Source: Parcubacteria group bacterium GW2011_GWA1_40_21
GTDB taxonomy: Bacteria; Patescibacteriota; Minisyncoccia; Phycocordibacterales; GWA1-40-21
NCBI GenBank assembly: GCA_000996205.1
Contig: LBYO01000004.1
Span: 4,051-68,050 of the forward strand
Reading direction: 5' to 3'
Length of the DNA: 64,000 nt
Positions within the stretch are counted from its first letter, which is position 1, and the number at the start of each line of letters is the position of its first letter. Position numbers and translations under genes: made by a program. Below, in pieces: positions 20,023 to 34,773 of the stretch. The notes beneath the pieces were generated by a model that had not been told where the DNA came from, did no database searches, and saw only the letters and a list, made by a program, of their open reading frames with translations.

Positions 20023-21384
20023 TTAATATTCTCGGATGTGCTCGGCATAAAAATCTGAAGTCATTCTCTCTCCCTCCCCCTTGTCTTCTTTGATGGTTTT
20101 GAATGGCTGTTTTTTTTGAATGTAAGAATCCATTTCCGCTATTTTCCGCCATATAAAATCCATCGCCTTATTCAATTCAAATTTTTCAATATATCCAACA
20201 AACTCTTTTGGAAATTCAAATTTTTCTTCCCCGAGTATGGGATTTTCCAAATAAGTCTCAGCCATTTTCATTATCCTGCTCGTTAAATTGCCGAGTCCAT
20301 TGGCCAAATTGGCGTTATAAATGTCTTTGAATTTGTCTACAGTAAAATCACTGTCCTCAAAAGGGTTCAATTCGCGGGCGAAATAATAACGCAAAGCGTC
20401 GGCGCCATATTCCGAAACAATACTCGCGGGACTTACGACATTGCCGAGACTCTTGCTTATTTTTTGTCCACCGATTGTGATAAAACCATTCACAATAATT
20501 TGCTTTGAAATTGGAAGTCTGGCCGCAAGAAGCATCGCTTGCCACATTGCCGCCTGCTGGCGGAGATTGTCTTTACCGCAATACTGCGTGACTGGCCACC
20601 ATCTGTGGAATTTGTCCGTATCGTCTGGCCAGCCGATGGCAGAAATATAATTCACAAGTGCATCAAACCACACATACATTATGTGTTCCGGATCATTCGG
20701 AACAGCAACCCCCCACGGCATTTTGCTCTTTAGACGCGATATGCTGAAATCTTCAAGTCCCCTTTCAACAAAAGCCTTGACTTCATTGAGCCGTGAAGAT
20801 GGAATTACAAAATCGGGATTATTTTCATAAAGCTCCAAAAGCGGTTTCTGAAATTTGGAAAAAGCGAAAAAATAATTTTCCTCTTCAATAATTTCAATCT
20901 TTTGATTCGAATGAATAGGACAACATCCGTTTTCCAATTCCGATTCAGTCTTTTCCAGCTCGCATCCTACACAGTATTTCACTTTGTAATTTTTCTTGTA
21001 TATATAGCCGTTTTTATCGCACACTTTCCAAAATTCCTGCGCGGAATTTTTGTGCCTTTCGTCGGTCGTTCTCACAAAATTTATGCCTTCCGACAAATTC
21101 AAGACGCAAATGAGGTCTTTGAATTTTTCAGCATAACCGTCCACATACTTCTGCGGATCCTGCCCGATTTCAAGAGCTTTGCGATAAATTTTCAAACCGT
21201 GTTCGTCCGTACCGGTATTAAAAAACACATTGAAACCTGCAAACTTCTTATAGCGAGCGATAATATCCGCCCGCGTGATCTCCATAGCAAAACCGATATG
21301 CGGATCGGCATTCACATAAGGCAATGTCGTCGTTATGTAAAAATTTTTACCGGCAATTGAGTTTTTCATCTCTCCTCTTTTCAT
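20023..21384 (-). CDS. metG: methionyl-tRNA synthetase (short form)
   Basis: 'PYVNADPHIGF' (HIGH region), 'NTGTDEHGLKI' (MetRS hallmark), a Cys4 zinc knuckle and 'KISKSLGN' (KMSKS). Confidence 0.85.
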   Translation of the reverse strand: MKRGEMKNSIAGKNFYITTTLPYVNADPHIGFAMEITRADIIARYKKFAGFNVFFNTGTDEHGLKIYRKALEIGQDPQKYVDGYAEKFKDLICVLNLSEGINFVRTTDERHKNSAQEFWKVCDKNGYIYKKNYKVKYCVGCELEKTESELENGCCPIHSNQKIEIIEEENYFFAFSKFQKPLLELYENNPDFVIPSSRLNEVKAFVERGLEDFSISRLKSKMPWGVAVPNDPEHIMYVWFDALVNYISAIGWPDDTDKFHRWWPVTQYCGKDNLRQQAAMWQAMLLAARLPISKQIIVNGFITIGGQKISKSLGNVVSPASIVSEYGADALRYYFARELNPFEDSDFTVDKFKDIYNANLANGLGNLTSRIMKMAETYLENPILGEEKFEFPKEFVGYIEKFELNKAMDFIWRKIAEMDSYIQKKQPFKTIKEDKGEGERMTSDFYAEHIREY

Positions 21385-31188: not shown

Positions 31189-34100
31189 TTACGCTTCTAT
31201 CTTGGCTTTTATCACAAAGCCGTCGGTGGAGATTTCCTGTCCGTCTTCCACAACGGCGTTGAATTCCAGTTTTTCTATGCCTGCTGATTTTTTGATTTCC
31301 TCGGCGAATTTTTCCATAAATTCTCTGGCATGGATTTCAGCTTGAACATACAAAATTATTTTCTGGCTGGTATTAAGACCGGCTTTCTTTCTCAAATCTT
31401 GAAGACCGCGAATCAAATCTCTCAAACTACCCTCTTCTTTGAGCTCGGGCGATATTTCCGTATCCAACTCAACCTCGCCTAAAATTTTCTCATCAAAAAT
31501 AATCTCTTTGACATTCAGCTCATCTTTGATCAAATCCAACATTTCTTTCTCCACTTTATGGACTTTATAACTTTTGACTTTTAACTTTTTTAACGCCTGT
31601 CTCACTTTTATATTCGCCTTTGCTCTAGCCTCCAACCCCAAAGAAACAATTCTCCTAACCTCCTCCATATCCTCAATTAAACTTTCGACTTTCGACTTTC
31701 GACTTTCGACTACTTTTACCCATTCTTCCAAATGAACGCTCTCTTTATCCTTTCCTTTGCCGTTCAATTTTTGGTACAAATATTCCGCCAAAAAAGGAGT
31801 GAATGGCGCCATAATTTTTGACAGTTCGGTCAAAACATACTTCATCGTGGCAAGCGCGAATTGTTTGTCTTTATAGTCATCTCCCTTTACCCTTTCTCTT
31901 GATCTGCGGACATACCAAGTGGAAAATTCATTGATAAAATCTTTGATCGGGCGGCCAGATTTGACGGTATTGTAATTTTCAAGCCCCTCCGTCACTTCAT
32001 TTATAAGAATATTGAGCTTGGCGAGAATCCATCCATCAAGAACATTTTCACTGTCTTCGCATTTCGTCTTGCCGTCATACTCGCCTTGATAAAGTTCAAA
32101 AAAATTGAATGTGTTAAGAAGAATATTTATCACTTTATTGTGAGCGTCCTTGATTTCCTCATCCGCAAATTTTATGTCTTCCGCCTGCATTATCGGACTG
32201 GTCATAAGATAATAACGCAAAGCATCCGCTCCGTACTTGTCCATATTCAGCATCGGGTCGGTGTAATTGCCTTTGGACTTGGACATTTTGCTCCCGTCTT
32301 CGGCTAAAATTGTTCCGGTGGTAATGACATTTTTGAAACTTGCATCGTCAAATAAGATGCCCGAAATGGTGTGCATATAGTAAAACCATGTTCTTGTTTG
32401 AGCCACATATTCGGTCACAAAATCACCCGACGGAAAACGGCTGCCGAGTTCTTTTTCATTTTCAAACGGATAATGATATTCGGCAAACGGCATCGCACCA
32501 GATTCAAACCATCCGTCAATAACTTCCGGCACTCTTTTCGTTTCGCCGAGACAGTCTTCACCACTGCAAACCAGATCAACTTCATCTATATAAGGCCTGT
32601 GCAAATCAAGCTCGTAATTTTCATTGTGCGGAAGCGGAACGAAGTCCAGTTTTCTTATCTCCGCGTTTTCAATAAAAAATTCTCCGTTTCCCCGCATAAG
32701 AAGCGCCTCTTTCGCATTCATCCCGAATGATCCGGCGAACAAAAGCCATGCAGGAGAGTCGTGAGTAACAATCAAAATATTTTTATTGTTGTGCCGTTTT
32801 TCAATGTCGTAAATAAAATCGGCGGTTCTTTTTTTAATATCGGAGTAATTTTCCCCCTGCGGAGTATTTTTTATAAATCGTTCTTCAAACGAAGTAAAAT
32901 AGTCGGTGTATGCCGATATAGATTTTCCATCAAATGTTCCCGCGTTCAATTCTCCGACTCTATTTTCAAGAATAATGTCAGATGGCTCAATTTGGAGCTT
33001 CCGTGCGATAATTTCCGCAGTTTCTTTTGTCCTCACAAAAGGCGAGCTGAAGATGATGTCAATTTTTTCAACTATCAAATCGTCCCCCGCTTTCGCCGCC
33101 TGCTCTCTGCCTTTCTCCGTCAAATGACTTGAATTTTTAGAATCGGAACTTATGAAAGCTTTTACATTGTTATCCGCTTCTCCGTGTCGAACCACAAAAT
33201 ATTTATTGCCGGATTTTTTTGTTTTTTTCTTTAATTCATCCACAGAACCGACAAGTTCAATTTTTCCGCATTTCTCGCATTTCCAAATCGGCAGAGGTGA
33301 GGCCCAATAGCGATTGCGGGAAATATTCCAATCCGGAGCGCTTTCTATATTATTCAGAAATCTGCCGTGTTTTAGGTGGTCTGGAAACCAATTTATTTTT
33401 TCATTAAGCTCCTTCAGGCGATTTTTCACTTTTTGGATGTTGATAAACCACGAAGAAAGCGCGCTGTAATAAAGCGGCGTTTCGCAACGATGGCAATGCG
33501 GATAGGAGTGAGTATGCGCCTGTTTGGCGAAAATCAATCCTCTTTTTTCCAAATCTTCTTTGATGTATTTCTCTCCTTTCTTCAAATAAAAACCTTGGAT
33601 AAATTCCGGCGCTTCTTTGTTGAAATGACCGCTTTGGTCTAAAAGCGGAATTGTCGGCAAATCGTATTTTATGCCGATATTATAATCGTCTTCCCCATGC
33701 ATCGGAGCGATGTGGACGATGCCGGTTCCGTCTTCCGTGGTCACGAAATCAGCCGAAACGACATAATGCGATTTTTTATTGAAATTTTTTACCGCCGGAA
33801 TTTCATAAAGTGGTTCGTATTCAAGTCCGACAAGTTTTTCACCGGAAAATTCACTTATTATTTCATAAGGTTCCGACAAAATACCGAGTCTTTCTTTCGC
33901 CAATATTAGATTTTCTCTGTCTTCAGTTTTTTCCGCCTGAGGCGGATCCGCCTCAGGCGGAAGATTTAATCCGTCAGCTGACGGATTAGATTTTAGATTA
34001 AGCTTGCAATAAATCAGCTCCTGATTTATTGCAAGCGCAACATTGCCCGACAATGTCCACGGCGTAGTCGTCCAAGCCAAAAGATAAGTATTTTCCGGCA

Positions 34101-34773
34101 AGTTGTGTTTTTTCGGATTTTTAACTTTAAACTTCACTATCACCGCTTCTTCCGTCACCGTTTTATAACTGTTATCCATCGCCACTTCCGCTTTGGCCAA
34201 AGGAGTCTCGCATCTCGGGCAATACATCAAAACCTTCCGACCTTCATAGAGCAAATCTTTTTTGTGGATTTCTTTTAACGCCCACCAAACGCTTTCAATG
34301 TAAGAATTGTCCATCGTCATATAGGAATTATCAAATTCCACCCAGCGGCCGATTCTCTCCACATAATTTTTCCAGTCGTGGGCAGTTTCTAAAACAGCGG
34401 AACGGCAAGTCTCGTTGAACTTTCCAACCCCCATCGCTTCAATTTCTTTTTTGCTCTTGAGCCCGAGCCTTTTTTCAATCATATTTTCAATCGGCAAGCC
34501 GTGGCAATCCCAGCCCCACCTTCGGCGAACATGATACCCCCGCATTGTCTTATAGCGAGGAATCACATCCTTAGCAACGGAAGAAAGCAAACTGCCGTAA
34601 TGAGGCAGACCTGTCGCAAAAGGCGGTCCATCATAAAAGACAAACTCGCCTTTCGGTGAATCCTTTGCCAAAGTTTTTTCAAAAATTTTATTTTCTTTCC
34701 AAAAACGGAGAGTTTCTTCCTCCCTTTTAGCCGTTTCGCTTTTGTTGTCTTTTTCCTTGTCGTTATTGGTCAT
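31189..34773 (-). CDS. ileS: isoleucyl-tRNA synthetase with an embedded histidine-phosphatase (PGAM-like) domain
   Basis: Carries 'PPFATGLPHYGSLL' (HIGH), 'WTTTPWTLSGN' (editing CP1), 'KMSKSKGN' and a zinc knuckle 'IWKCEKCGK'. Residues ~516-722 are 'YFVVRHGEADNN…FSSPFVRTKETAEII…ENRVGELNAGTFDG…ILIVTHDSPAWLL', a complete histidine-phosphatase core placed before 'LDLHRPYIDE'. Confidence 0.9.
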   Translation of the reverse strand: MTNNDKEKDNKSETAKREEETLRFWKENKIFEKTLAKDSPKGEFVFYDGPPFATGLPHYGSLLSSVAKDVIPRYKTMRGYHVRRRWGWDCHGLPIENMIEKRLGLKSKKEIEAMGVGKFNETCRSAVLETAHDWKNYVERIGRWVEFDNSYMTMDNSYIESVWWALKEIHKKDLLYEGRKVLMYCPRCETPLAKAEVAMDNSYKTVTEEAVIVKFKVKNPKKHNLPENTYLLAWTTTPWTLSGNVALAINQELIYCKLNLKSNPSADGLNLPPEADPPQAEKTEDRENLILAKERLGILSEPYEIISEFSGEKLVGLEYEPLYEIPAVKNFNKKSHYVVSADFVTTEDGTGIVHIAPMHGEDDYNIGIKYDLPTIPLLDQSGHFNKEAPEFIQGFYLKKGEKYIKEDLEKRGLIFAKQAHTHSYPHCHRCETPLYYSALSSWFINIQKVKNRLKELNEKINWFPDHLKHGRFLNNIESAPDWNISRNRYWASPLPIWKCEKCGKIELVGSVDELKKKTKKSGNKYFVVRHGEADNNVKAFISSDSKNSSHLTEKGREQAAKAGDDLIVEKIDIIFSSPFVRTKETAEIIARKLQIEPSDIILENRVGELNAGTFDGKSISAYTDYFTSFEERFIKNTPQGENYSDIKKRTADFIYDIEKRHNNKNILIVTHDSPAWLLFAGSFGMNAKEALLMRGNGEFFIENAEIRKLDFVPLPHNENYELDLHRPYIDEVDLVCSGEDCLGETKRVPEVIDGWFESGAMPFAEYHYPFENEKELGSRFPSGDFVTEYVAQTRTWFYYMHTISGILFDDASFKNVITTGTILAEDGSKMSKSKGNYTDPMLNMDKYGADALRYYLMTSPIMQAEDIKFADEEIKDAHNKVINILLNTFNFFELYQGEYDGKTKCEDSENVLDGWILAKLNILINEVTEGLENYNTVKSGRPIKDFINEFSTWYVRRSRERVKGDDYKDKQFALATMKYVLTELSKIMAPFTPFLAEYLYQKLNGKGKDKESVHLEEWVKVVESRKSKVESLIEDMEEVRRIVSLGLEARAKANIKVRQALKKLKVKSYKVHKVEKEMLDLIKDELNVKEIIFDEKILGEVELDTEISPELKEEGSLRDLIRGLQDLRKKAGLNTSQKIILYVQAEIHAREFMEKFAEEIKKSAGIEKLEFNAVVEDGQEISTDGFVIKAKIEA
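33933..34036. repeat. three consecutive perfect palindromes inside ileS coding sequence
   Basis: ccgcctgaggcggatccgcctcaggcgg (33933-33960), aatccgtcagctgacggatt (33968-33987) and gcttgcaataaatcagctcctgatttattgcaagc (34002-34036). Together they encode …INQELIYCKLNLKSNPSADGLNLPPEADPPQAEKTEDR…. Confidence 0.7.

Follow-up and report, generated by a model that had tools for sequence, protein, structure and literature searches.

The isoleucyl-tRNA synthetase (IleRS) of the groundwater bacterium Parcubacteria group bacterium GW2011_GWA1_40_21 (Patescibacteria, class Minisyncoccia) contains a complete branch-1 histidine phosphatase within its type-2 synthetase core, an anatomy that we regard as virtually certain. 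The insertion is real, ancient and in-frame, and yields a two-enzyme protein whose host IleRS is apparently functional. Few enzymes have been studied as closely as the aminoacyl-tRNA synthetases (aaRS). The accessory catalytic domains known in them serve editing, and further domains are as a rule added at the termini. Here a second, unrelated and, judging by its residues, catalytically intact enzyme lies within the aminoacylating domain of an IleRS that is essential and present in a single copy. All coordinates below refer to the window, the stretch of 64,000 nucleotides of contig LBYO01000004.1 that was analyzed.

Host gene and synthetase domains

The source genome (0.76 Mb, 97.7% complete) has a single IleRS, as ORF 31189-34773 is the sole locus genome-wide that scores above the cut-off of the ileS model TIGR00392. 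The features of this locus are as follows:

31189..34773, minus strand: ileS, type-2 isoleucyl-tRNA synthetase of 1194 aa (single unbroken ORF; TIGR00392; full-length AF2 model)
33214..34773, minus strand: IleRS N-terminal part, aa 1-520 (aligns to Thermus IleRS 11-482; tRNA-synt_1 match at aa 21-523)
34591..34602, minus strand: HIGH signature, reading HYGS, with the fourth residue His replaced by Ser (sequence and homologue alignment)
33925..33984, minus strand: Pro/Asp/Glu-rich stretch in CP1, aa 264-283, predicted to be disordered (pLDDT <50; outside the phosphatase)
33262..33285, minus strand: WKCEKCGK, first Cys pair of the second zinc knuckle (aligns to Thermus WVCQACGK; ends 16 residues ahead of the insert)
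32638..33213, minus strand: inserted histidine phosphatase, aa 521-712, branch 1, PhoE/PspA/CobC-like short type (PF00300, AF2 model, Foldseek)
33181..33189, minus strand: RHG (R529, H530, G531), with H530 the predicted phospho-accepting nucleophile (R and H invariant in 61 of 61 homologues)
32761..33168, minus strand: remaining catalytic residues, N536 (33166-33168), R581 (33031-33033), E608 (32950-32952, predicted proton donor) and H671 (32761-32763)
31189..32637, minus strand: IleRS C-terminal part, aa 713-1194 (aligns to Thermus 488-820; Anticodon_1 and DUF5915 matches)

The ORF runs without a stop or frame change over all 1194 residues, in agreement with the continuous frame claimed in a preliminary description of this DNA, and its product scores 836.9 bits against TIGR00392 (cut-off 621.4), the match falling in two stretches parted by the insert. 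The full-length AF2 model has a pLDDT of 87.8 and a pTM of 0.81. The N-terminal part comprises the first half of the Rossmann fold, the CP1 editing domain, the first zinc site and the CxxC of the second zinc knuckle, while the C-terminal part comprises PLPHN..HRPYID, CSGEDC (32551-32568), which is the second Cys pair of the second zinc knuckle, WFESG, KMSKS, the anticodon-binding domain and the DUF5915 domain.

The synthetase had been described as intact on both sides of the insert, which was supported overall, with a variant HIGH signature. KMSKS is exact at aa 829-833 (32275-32289, minus strand), with K829 and K832 invariant in homologues, and in the CP1 Thr-rich motif WTTTPWTL (aa 234-241) residues W234, T235-T237, W239, T240 and L241 are invariant and P238 is present in at least 90% of the aligned rows. 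The HIGH signature reads HYGS, a variant with Ser at the fourth position that is shared by 9 of 61 homologues, His being present in 49. The CP1 region also matches the solved IleRS editing domains 1wk8 and 1ue0, and the Cys residues of WKCEKCGK are retained in 44 of the 61 homologues. The Pro/Asp/Glu-rich stretch of CP1 falls in a region (query ~aa 259-290) that is unaligned with Thermus IleRS. Identity with the mupirocin-resistant enzymes MupA and MupB was rejected (NF000257 and NF000258, 711 and 709 bits vs. a cut-off of 1900), and the similarity to them is only what all type-2 IleRS have in common. As to the surroundings of ileS in the window, ArgRS lies upstream and the other neighbors are small ORFs without families, none of them informative; the plus-strand antisense ORFs 32371-32730 and 32761-33132 lie opposite a conserved coding frame and were taken as spurious.

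Identity of the inserted domain

The preliminary description placed an insert of about 200 residues between the zinc knuckle and HRPY, at 32608-33228. In a phmmer alignment to Thermus IleRS (1ile), query residues 497-520 correspond to Thermus 459-482 and the query from residue 722 to Thermus from 488, and the flanks of the insert, ELKKKTKK and PLPHNENYELDLHRPYID, form a contiguous stretch in the Thermus enzyme, from which we deduce that the insertion is aa 521-712 (32638-33213), within the range first proposed. These 192 residues sit cleanly between the two Cys pairs of the catalytic-domain zinc knuckle, 13 residues before HRPYxD.

Assignment of the insert to the histidine phosphatase superfamily was upheld. 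Pfam His_Phos_1 (PF00300) matches aa 526-691 (E 9.9e-32; 110.6 bits vs. a gathering cut-off of 21.7; profile positions 2-167 of 194), which is the only match to this family in the genome, and Foldseek aligned the insert model to many solved members (4ij5/4ij6, 1h2e, 6e4b, Rv2419c) with a probability of 1.00 and TM scores of 0.72-0.75. The full catalytic set is present, including all four motifs quoted earlier (RHG 529-531, R581, E608, and H671). Residues R529, H530, N536, R581, E608, and H671 are invariant in 61 aligned homologues, and the set R-H-N-R-E-H is kept in all 68 domain instances examined, every tandem copy (see below) included; in a genus census, the first two positions of RHG were read as Arg and His in 231 carriers each (those scoring at least 40% of the best score), and no alternative residue was listed. 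Since the full catalytic machinery is kept, the domain is expected to cleave either a phosphomonoester or a phosphate in terminal position, by way of a phospho-His530 intermediate. Whether the phosphatase folds independently had been left to structure prediction, and the model of the insert alone (pLDDT 95.4) predicts that it does.

Across homologues the insert is ~50% identical to that of this IleRS, a value equal to the whole-protein identity, and by this measure the inserted phosphatase is as conserved and as slow-evolving as the synthetase body. With a median net charge of -2 and a pI of 6.5, the inserts are slightly acidic; they belong to a Patescibacteria subfamily with motifs of its own (F.S.EE.F.K.PP.GEN), scoring far below every NCBIfam equivalog cut-off. 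For instance, the insert, which is of the short ~190-aa type, does not score as a dPGM (90.4 bits vs. 225 for NF038349 dPGM_arch; 25.1 vs. 81.7 for TIGR01258), nor as PspA (NF045917, 70.5 bits vs. 350), CobC (TIGR03162, 73.9 vs. 162.9) or SixA (TIGR00249, 36.6 vs. 74.5).

We considered whether the arrangement could stem from chimeric assembly, from wrongly joined frames, or from a piece of the intein or intron type that is missing from the mature protein, as intervening sequences are known in Patescibacteria and other IleRS in the phylum bear an in-frame transposase-like domain. However, a 988-nt public contig with zero differences covers 32464-33451, and thereby both junctions, and contigs from a second sample tile the same stretch, also with zero differences, which disposes of the chimera that the preliminary description had named as a possible refutation. 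The ileS reading frame has no stop or shift through the insert, the junctions (KK/SGN and DFV/PLP, as read from the sequence) lack intein splice residues, the phosphatase catalytic residues are under selection and the architecture is present in >1000 genera. An artefact or a removable element is consequently improbable in the extreme, and we consider this explanation effectively refuted already. The GC content of the insert is that of its flanks.

Distribution in Minisyncoccia and in other synthetases

The inserted phosphatase domain was found in ~1050 of the 1387 Minisyncoccia genera in the genus census (about three quarters). Among the carriers tried, ileS was located ≤1 kb from the domain match in all 75 of the 40-59% likeness band, in 141 of 147 of the 20-39% band and in 21 of 75 of those below 20%. 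A match was present in 22 of 23 genomes of the same class, and all 19 that were individually tabulated lie within frames of 942-1245 aa. At the protein level, 2592 clusters match the insert, the top 120 of which all combine PF00133 with PF00300. An IleRS-embedded phosphatase is thus the norm in the class Minisyncoccia. The architecture is not rare, which qualifies the claim that it is not a known one in IleRS. The segment corresponds to no named subdomain, and a full-text literature search (most subscription journals being outside its reach) found no description of a phosphatase domain in any aaRS; databases label these proteins "class I tRNA ligase family protein." Homologues do commonly contain the segment, however, which is one half of what the preliminary description had set down beforehand as counting against it, namely a segment that is both common in homologous IleRS and annotated as a known subdomain.

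The phenomenon also extends beyond IleRS: ValRS and AlaRS contain domains of this kind, which further occur at different sites and as tandems. Each of the 28 long host frames that were fetched is an aaRS (17 IleRS, 8 ValRS, and 3 AlaRS), as are all six further database proteins that were typed. The phosphatase is inserted at two loops in IleRS and two in ValRS, and it entered the class II AlaRS once, the second IleRS site being the junction with the anticodon-binding domain. ValRS hosts occur in several lineages and AlaRS hosts are rare; the AlaRS-type census at 60 bits was over-permissive, with 17802 generic carriers, and shows only the rarity of the AlaRS form. Inserts occur singly or as tandems of 2-4 copies, all catalytically intact. 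In a tree with quick SH-aLRT support only, whose deep branches are weak, the inserts of IleRS site 2, those of AlaRS and the two tandem copies form separate clades, ValRS inserts are polyphyletic, and inserted and free-standing (~190-aa) phosphatases interchange. The gene neighborhoods of the free-standing relatives have no consistent partner; single cases beside SmpB/IF3 and beside an HTH-Panacea antitoxin gene are anecdotal.

The design has been retained through the whole history of a class of >1000 genera and re-invented in ValRS and in the class II AlaRS, with up to four tandem copies, a pattern that points to an unrecognized phosphate-related step linked to the charging of tRNA in Patescibacteria, which are ultra-small and depend on hosts. 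Thousands of these proteins are public under generic names and are directly testable as recombinant enzymes. Any substrate found would give a function to a large unannotated phosphatase subfamily, and may bring to light a further level of quality control over tRNAs or synthetases.

Possible roles of the embedded phosphatase

Every host found is an aminoacyl-tRNA synthetase, leading us to suspect that the phosphatase most likely acts on something that synthetases handle, and in general terms it is probably active and functionally tied to aminoacylation. The explanation that we find best as a whole, in which such an active embedded phosphatase has a blocked tRNA acceptor end as its preferred substrate, is tentative and falls a little short of probable. 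The synthetase part would provide tRNA recognition, the tethered phosphatase would take a blocking 2'/3'-phosphate or 3'-pyrophosphate off the acceptor end (a block such as RNases leave behind or toxSAS enzymes install), and the same enzyme would then recharge the healed tRNA. toxSAS enzymes pyrophosphorylate the tRNA CCA end, which blocks charging (10.1101/2021.04.30.441581), and their modification of the CCA end is tRNA-specific (10.1101/2024.07.05.602228). Taken on its own, this synthetase-guided removal of an acceptor-end phosphate block followed by recharging is rather unlikely. We are equally doubtful that the embedded phosphatases are a repair device which either unblocks the CCA end of the cognate tRNA or removes an inhibitory phosphate from the synthetase itself. 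If true, this would represent a new proofreading-like "healing" activity of aaRS, with dephosphorylation and recharging on one enzyme, and a new substrate class for histidine phosphatases that was repeatedly invented in Patescibacteria. Our best guess at the substrate, either a tRNA acceptor end blocked by phosphate or some other phosphorylated species linked to aminoacylation, is made with low confidence.

Several observations argue against the tRNA end as substrate. The closest solved relatives act on small molecules (phosphoserine, 3-PG, alpha-ribazole-P, and glucosyl-3-PG), and the acidity of the inserts (net charge -2, pI 6.5) does not appear to be that of an RNA binder. The CCA-adding enzyme of this genome itself contains an HD domain, which is the classical module for 3'-end healing, and the phosphatase was rejected as a stand-in for an absent one. 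The near-universal, ancient retention in Minisyncoccia looks like housekeeping, not an arms race, and IleRS site 2 is at the junction with the anticodon-binding domain, away from the active site. Furthermore, the interchange of free-standing and inserted copies implies that covalent linkage is not strictly required. We know of no histidine phosphatase that acts on RNA ends, and a literature search for such an enzyme found no paper combining all three terms.

It is feasible that the domain is an ordinary sugar-, acid- or nucleotide-phosphate enzyme, needed for reasons unrelated to translation, which lodged in the surface loops of large, essential, constitutively expressed synthetases and was kept only for co-expression and genome economy. 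Its nearest relatives, among solved structures as well as among profiles, are without exception small-molecule phosphatases; embedded and free-standing forms change places on the tree, insertion sites vary and multiple intact tandem copies resemble a dosage effect; in addition, as this is the sole His_Phos_1 domain of the genome, it would have to fill whatever housekeeping role the family plays. We nevertheless judge a phosphatase of this kind unlikely, because all 28 fetched host frames and all six typed database proteins are aaRS, of three families, with no other large protein among them, and because a free-standing gene, such as many relatives have, would do equally well. The usual pathways are also either covered or absent, and a role as PGM, pyrophosphatase or phosphoserine phosphatase in this genome is unlikely: iPGM (614 bits) and enolase are present, as is a family I PPase, and a search of the genome (97.7% complete) for SerC found none, only a generic 2-hydroxyacid dehydrogenase being present.

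Another candidate substrate is a nucleotide that the synthetase site binds or produces (AMP, ADP, Ap4A/p4A, pAp or an alarmone-like nucleotide with a 3'-phosphate), hydrolysis of which would tune the reaction or clear an inhibitor. It is well established that aaRS release AMP and make Ap4A (for Ap4A, see the review PMC7705103), the substrate of CobC-type relatives is a nucleotide-like 5'-phosphate, and His_Phos domains are fused elsewhere to nucleotide or nucleic-acid enzymes (PRK07238 RNase H/acid phosphatase; the MutT1 model). Nothing in this proposal explains, however, why the hosts are IleRS, ValRS and AlaRS instead of strong Ap4A makers, hydrolysis of AMP or ATP would be wasteful in an energy-poor cell, and a pyrophosphatase is already present. 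No RelA/SpoT synthetase was found in this genome, which led us to reject an endogenous alarmone link and further weakens the case for a nucleotide substrate, which we consider quite unlikely. GltX, TrpS and LysS are switched off by toxin kinases of the HipA family, which phosphorylate them close to the ATP site, and the phosphatase could be a built-in antidote to such aaRS-silencing kinases that clears inhibitory phosphates from its own synthetase; self-protection would account for each synthetase having its own copy inside the catalytic domain. Protein phosphatases do exist among branch-1 histidine phosphatases, e.g., in mycobacterial MutT1, whose His_Phos domain removes phosphate from sensor kinases (PMC12407098). 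Yet no kinase is known to target IleRS, ValRS or AlaRS, and the cap region is typical of small-molecule enzymes, unlike the minimal SixA type (36.6 bits vs. 74.5), making dephosphorylation in cis improbable.

Comparison with known systems

Thermus thermophilus IleRS (1ILE) and IleRS2 (8C8U) are collinear with the whole synthetase (703 and 691 bits) and have the same two zinc sites, CP1 editing domain, KMSKS, anticodon-binding domain and C-terminal domain. Both, however, run straight on after ELKARATK, where 192 residues of a second enzyme intervene here, and they differ in the HIGH motif, which is HYGS in this IleRS. Among phosphatases, Hydrogenobacter iPSP1/PspA (4IJ5), Bacillus PhoE/YhfR (1H2E and 1EBB), CobC (6E4B and 6NRU) and Rv2419c GpgP share the fold (TM 0.72-0.75), the length of ~200 aa and the R-H-N-R-E-H set, but these short branch-1 enzymes are only 18-25% identical to the insert and are free-standing, whereas the domain described here is embedded.

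Branch-1 phosphatases are likewise joined to nucleic-acid or nucleotide enzymes in PRK07238 (RNase H/acid phosphatase, Rv2228c type), which is among the best profile matches of the insert (73 bits), and in MutT1 (Nudix plus His_Phos), whose phosphatase domain is a demonstrated working phosphatase (PMC12407098). Those are end-to-end fusions with other partners, in contrast to an insertion inside an aaRS catalytic domain. For the proposed removal of an acceptor-end block, the nearest parallel is provided by toxSAS/small alarmone hydrolase pairs, in which aminoacylation is stopped by a phosphate-type block at the tRNA 3'-end that a dedicated hydrolase can undo (10.1101/2021.04.30.441581; 10.1101/2024.07.05.602228); the reversing enzymes are of the HD-domain SAH family, not histidine phosphatases, this genome yielded neither a toxSAS nor a RelA/SpoT domain, and we only infer a link to the inserted phosphatase.

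IleRS with a GNAT domain (NF040702 ileS_w_GNAT) similarly gained a whole second catalytic domain, although of another fold and chemistry and, by profile coordinates, in the CP1 region instead of the zinc knuckle. The IleRS described here scores 310 bits against NF040702 (cut-off 1999), and one Patescibacteria IleRS, P0337, has both a His_Phos and a GNAT-like domain. The region of CP1 in which other IleRS bear GNAT or transposase-like inserts is the same as that occupied here by the Pro/Asp/Glu-rich stretch.

The histidine phosphatase domain and its host

The ileS product (P0001, to which residue numbers refer) reaches 837 bits with the NCBIfam equivalog model for ileS (cut-off 621) and carries the Pfam domains tRNA-synt_1, His_Phos_1, tRNA-synt_1g, Anticodon_1 and DUF5915. 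It is the sole isoleucyl-tRNA synthetase (IleRS) of the genome (97.7% complete, 761 kb, 26 contigs), which falls in class Minisyncoccia in our genus census, and its nearest database relatives bear the names Parcubacteria, Paceibacterota or Patescibacteria.

Features of the ileS region
31189-34773, minus: ileS, a single unbroken frame of 1194 codons
32638-33213, minus: His_Phos_1 insert, residues 521-712 (192 residues), from the Thermus alignment at residue level
33925-33984, minus: Pro/Asp/Glu-rich stretch, residues 264-283, pLDDT <50
34591-34602, minus: HYGS, the HIGH signature (class I motif) of P0001
35490-37256, minus: ArgRS, directly upstream of ileS

Alignment to Thermus IleRS (1ile) matched residues 497-520 with Thermus 459-482 and residue 722 onward with Thermus 488 onward. 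Read at residue level, the flanks ELKKKTKK (513-520) and PLPHNENYELDLHRPYID (713-730) correspond to one contiguous Thermus segment, and the guest is therefore residues 521-712, a clean insertion of 192 residues that replaces no host residues. It splits the second zinc knuckle, with the CxxC (WKCEKCGK) before it and the second Cys pair (CSGEDC) after it. HRPYID follows 13 residues later and the WFESG strand, in the second Rossmann half, ~40 residues later, and GC content is constant across the insert. The location between knuckle and HRPYID, and the size, thus agree with the preliminary description.

Public reads containing the ileS stretch originate from groundwater metagenomes. A 988-nt public contig that spans the insert (32464-33451) has no differences, and a second sample tiles the region, also with no differences. 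A protein database search matched the insert to 2592 clusters of synthetase length, the best 120 of which all combine PF00133 and PF00300, and inspection of the junction residues revealed nothing intein-like at either end. These observations rule out an artefact, including the assembly chimera considered at the outset.

Pfam places His_Phos_1 at residues 526-691 (E 9.9e-32), and the catalytic set R529, H530, N536, R581, E608 and H671 is complete and invariant in 61/61 full-length homologues, bearing out the family assignment originally made from motifs. The domain is predicted to fold by itself when modeled alone (pLDDT 95.4), a check that the preliminary description had proposed; in the full-length model (pLDDT 87.8, pTM 0.81) its 10-residue block means are 87-96. 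Foldseek matches (TM 0.72-0.75) are short branch-1 histidine phosphatases, namely iPSP1 (4ij5/4ij6), PhoE (1h2e/1ebb), CobC (6e4b/6nru) and Rv2419c, and a sequence search returns the same relatives. By profile search the insert fell below the cut-offs for dPGM, CobC, PspA, GpmB and SixA, reaching no named subfamily. From family membership, it is a predicted phosphomonoesterase acting through phospho-His530, and it is the only His_Phos_1 domain in the genome. Across the 61 homologues its identity to P0001 is ~50%, equal to that of the whole protein, and it is therefore as strongly constrained as the essential synthetase.

In 17 of the 61 aligned insert-bearing IleRS (alignment A1) the four knuckle cysteines (P0001 positions 499, 502, 736, 741) are gone and the phosphatase is retained, so the zinc of the hosting knuckle is dispensable once the domain is present.

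Distribution, hosts and history of the domain

At a threshold of at least 90 bits, the insert type was found in 1344 of 36145 genera, ~1248 of them Patescibacteriota, and the survey of Patescibacteria proposed earlier gave the insert in most Minisyncoccia genera.

Carrier genera in the census
Minisyncoccia: ~1050 (1387 drawn)
Patescibacteriia: ~90 (681 drawn)
Gracilibacteria: ~51 (385 drawn)

With falling likeness, ileS lay within 1 kb of the match in 75/75, 141/147 and 21/75 carriers tried, as against <3 at random places of the same genomes. In a phylum sample of 400 genomes (E 1e-10 or better), 22/23 same-class genomes had a match, and the 19 same-class matches itemised individually all lie within frames of 942-1245 aa; 264 genomes had no match at this threshold, and their IleRS are therefore without the insert. 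All 28 long domain-bearing frames retrieved from this sample are aminoacyl-tRNA synthetases (aaRS): 17 IleRS, 8 ValRS and 3 AlaRS, the last form being rare.

Arrangements of the domain
IleRS, zinc-knuckle site: single insert
IleRS, zinc-knuckle site: two tandem domains (family f20)
IleRS, second site, in the loop that precedes the anticodon-binding domain, ~75 residues past KMSKS: single insert (family f90)
IleRS P0369: inserts at both sites
IleRS P0337: His_Phos, transposase-like and GNAT-like domains
ValRS: inserts at profile positions ~415-430 or ~460
ValRS P0284: four tandem copies
AlaRS (class II): insert within the catalytic domain, with alaS profile positions 203 and 217 on either side (family f56)

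The catalytic set is kept in all 68 domain instances, bar single exceptions at one position in three sequences. In a quick tree (SH-aLRT support only, deep nodes weak), Minisyncoccia inserts and some free-standing ~190-aa proteins formed one clade (support 95), while site 2, AlaRS, first tandem copies and second tandem copies formed separate clades (94-99), ValRS inserts were polyphyletic, and the free-standing copy of genome G112 was sister to an IleRS insert from a different genome (100). This topology shows that the domain has several times entered synthetase genes, passed from one to another and left them, and, as the two f20 copies fall in different clades, that the second was acquired separately and is not a recent duplication.

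Possible function

What has to be accounted for is a domain whose hosts, as far as found, are all aaRS, from three families of both classes, and which lies in catalytic-domain loops, often in multiple intact copies. These features fit best with a substrate bound by the synthetases themselves. The one we favor, tentatively and by analogy, is a phosphate-blocked tRNA acceptor end: the synthetase would lend tRNA specificity to the embedded phosphatase, which would remove the block. ToxSAS enzymes pyrophosphorylate the tRNA CCA end and halt charging (10.1101/2021.04.30.441581), and this block is tRNA-specific (10.1101/2024.07.05.602228). Against this proposal, our literature search found no histidine phosphatase acting on RNA ends, the insert is slightly acidic, an HD domain is already present in the genome's CCA enzyme, one of the insertion sites is far from the active site, and retention so deep and near-universal resembles that of a housekeeping function.

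A metabolic phosphatase that merely rides along in its host is unlikely, slightly more so than a tRNA-end phosphatase; a check of the obvious metabolic roles showed that the genome encodes iPGM and enolase as well as a family I pyrophosphatase, and neither SerC nor a RelA/SpoT domain was found in it (97.7% complete). Action on a nucleotide by-product is a weaker candidate still, and a protein phosphatase acting in cis is improbable even with the precedent of the MutT1 His_Phos domain (PMC12407098).

Taken separately, the host, a type-2 IleRS, and the guest, a short histidine phosphatase, are both ordinary; what is new is their pairing and the guest's placement. In the fusions already known (NCBIfam models), His_Phos is joined end to end with an RNase H or Nudix domain, whereas here it is internal; another NCBIfam model describes an IleRS whose guest is a GNAT domain. 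A full-text literature search turned up no account of an aaRS that contains a phosphatase. Insert-bearing proteins are already in public databases under generic names. The interest of an aaRS-embedded phosphatase rests on its scale, recurrence and testability.

Additional observations

Arrays of 2-4 His_Phos domains in tandem, each catalytically intact, occur within one IleRS or ValRS in f20 (loci L010, L011, L012, L019 and L020 of genomes G392, G002, G327, G340 and G182) and in P0284 and P0304. Free-standing copies include P0286, P0293, P0311 and P0126. Three genomes have a free-standing His_Phos gene (~190-210 aa) at a distance of 2-3 kb from an insert-bearing ileS (L028:8254-8829, minus, with ileS at L028:3715-7236, minus; also G171:C20 and G325:C1). 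Free-standing P0139 (L039:3741-5534) has, immediately upstream of it, an HTH + SocA_Panacea antitoxin-type gene and a 131-aa ORF that matches no family, a single sighting that could be coincidence.

The fourth HIGH residue is Ser in 9/61 and His in 49/61 close homologues. About 10 kb from ileS is a class I aaRS-like ORF of 453 aa (20023-21384, minus); the stops within its genome-search match lie outside the intact ORF. The Pro/Asp/Glu-rich residues 264-283 are within a CP1 segment (~259-290) unaligned to Thermus IleRS, in the same region where GNAT or transposase-like inserts occur in other IleRS. A REP-associated tyrosine transposase match (NF047646, cut-off 80) lies in frame there in two Patescibacteria IleRS (L021:1156-5400, minus, residues 294-446, 71.5 bits; P0337, residues 326-472, 81.3 bits). 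Translation of such a domain within an essential synthetase is odd, and may be relevant to how these genes acquire foreign domains. After its His_Phos domain, P0337 has a GNAT-like N-acetyltransferase match (residues 921-1065, TIGR04045, 50.7 bits, below the cut-off of 68.45); NCBIfam holds a separate 'ileS_w_GNAT' family (NF040702), and accessory catalytic domains seem to accumulate in IleRS.
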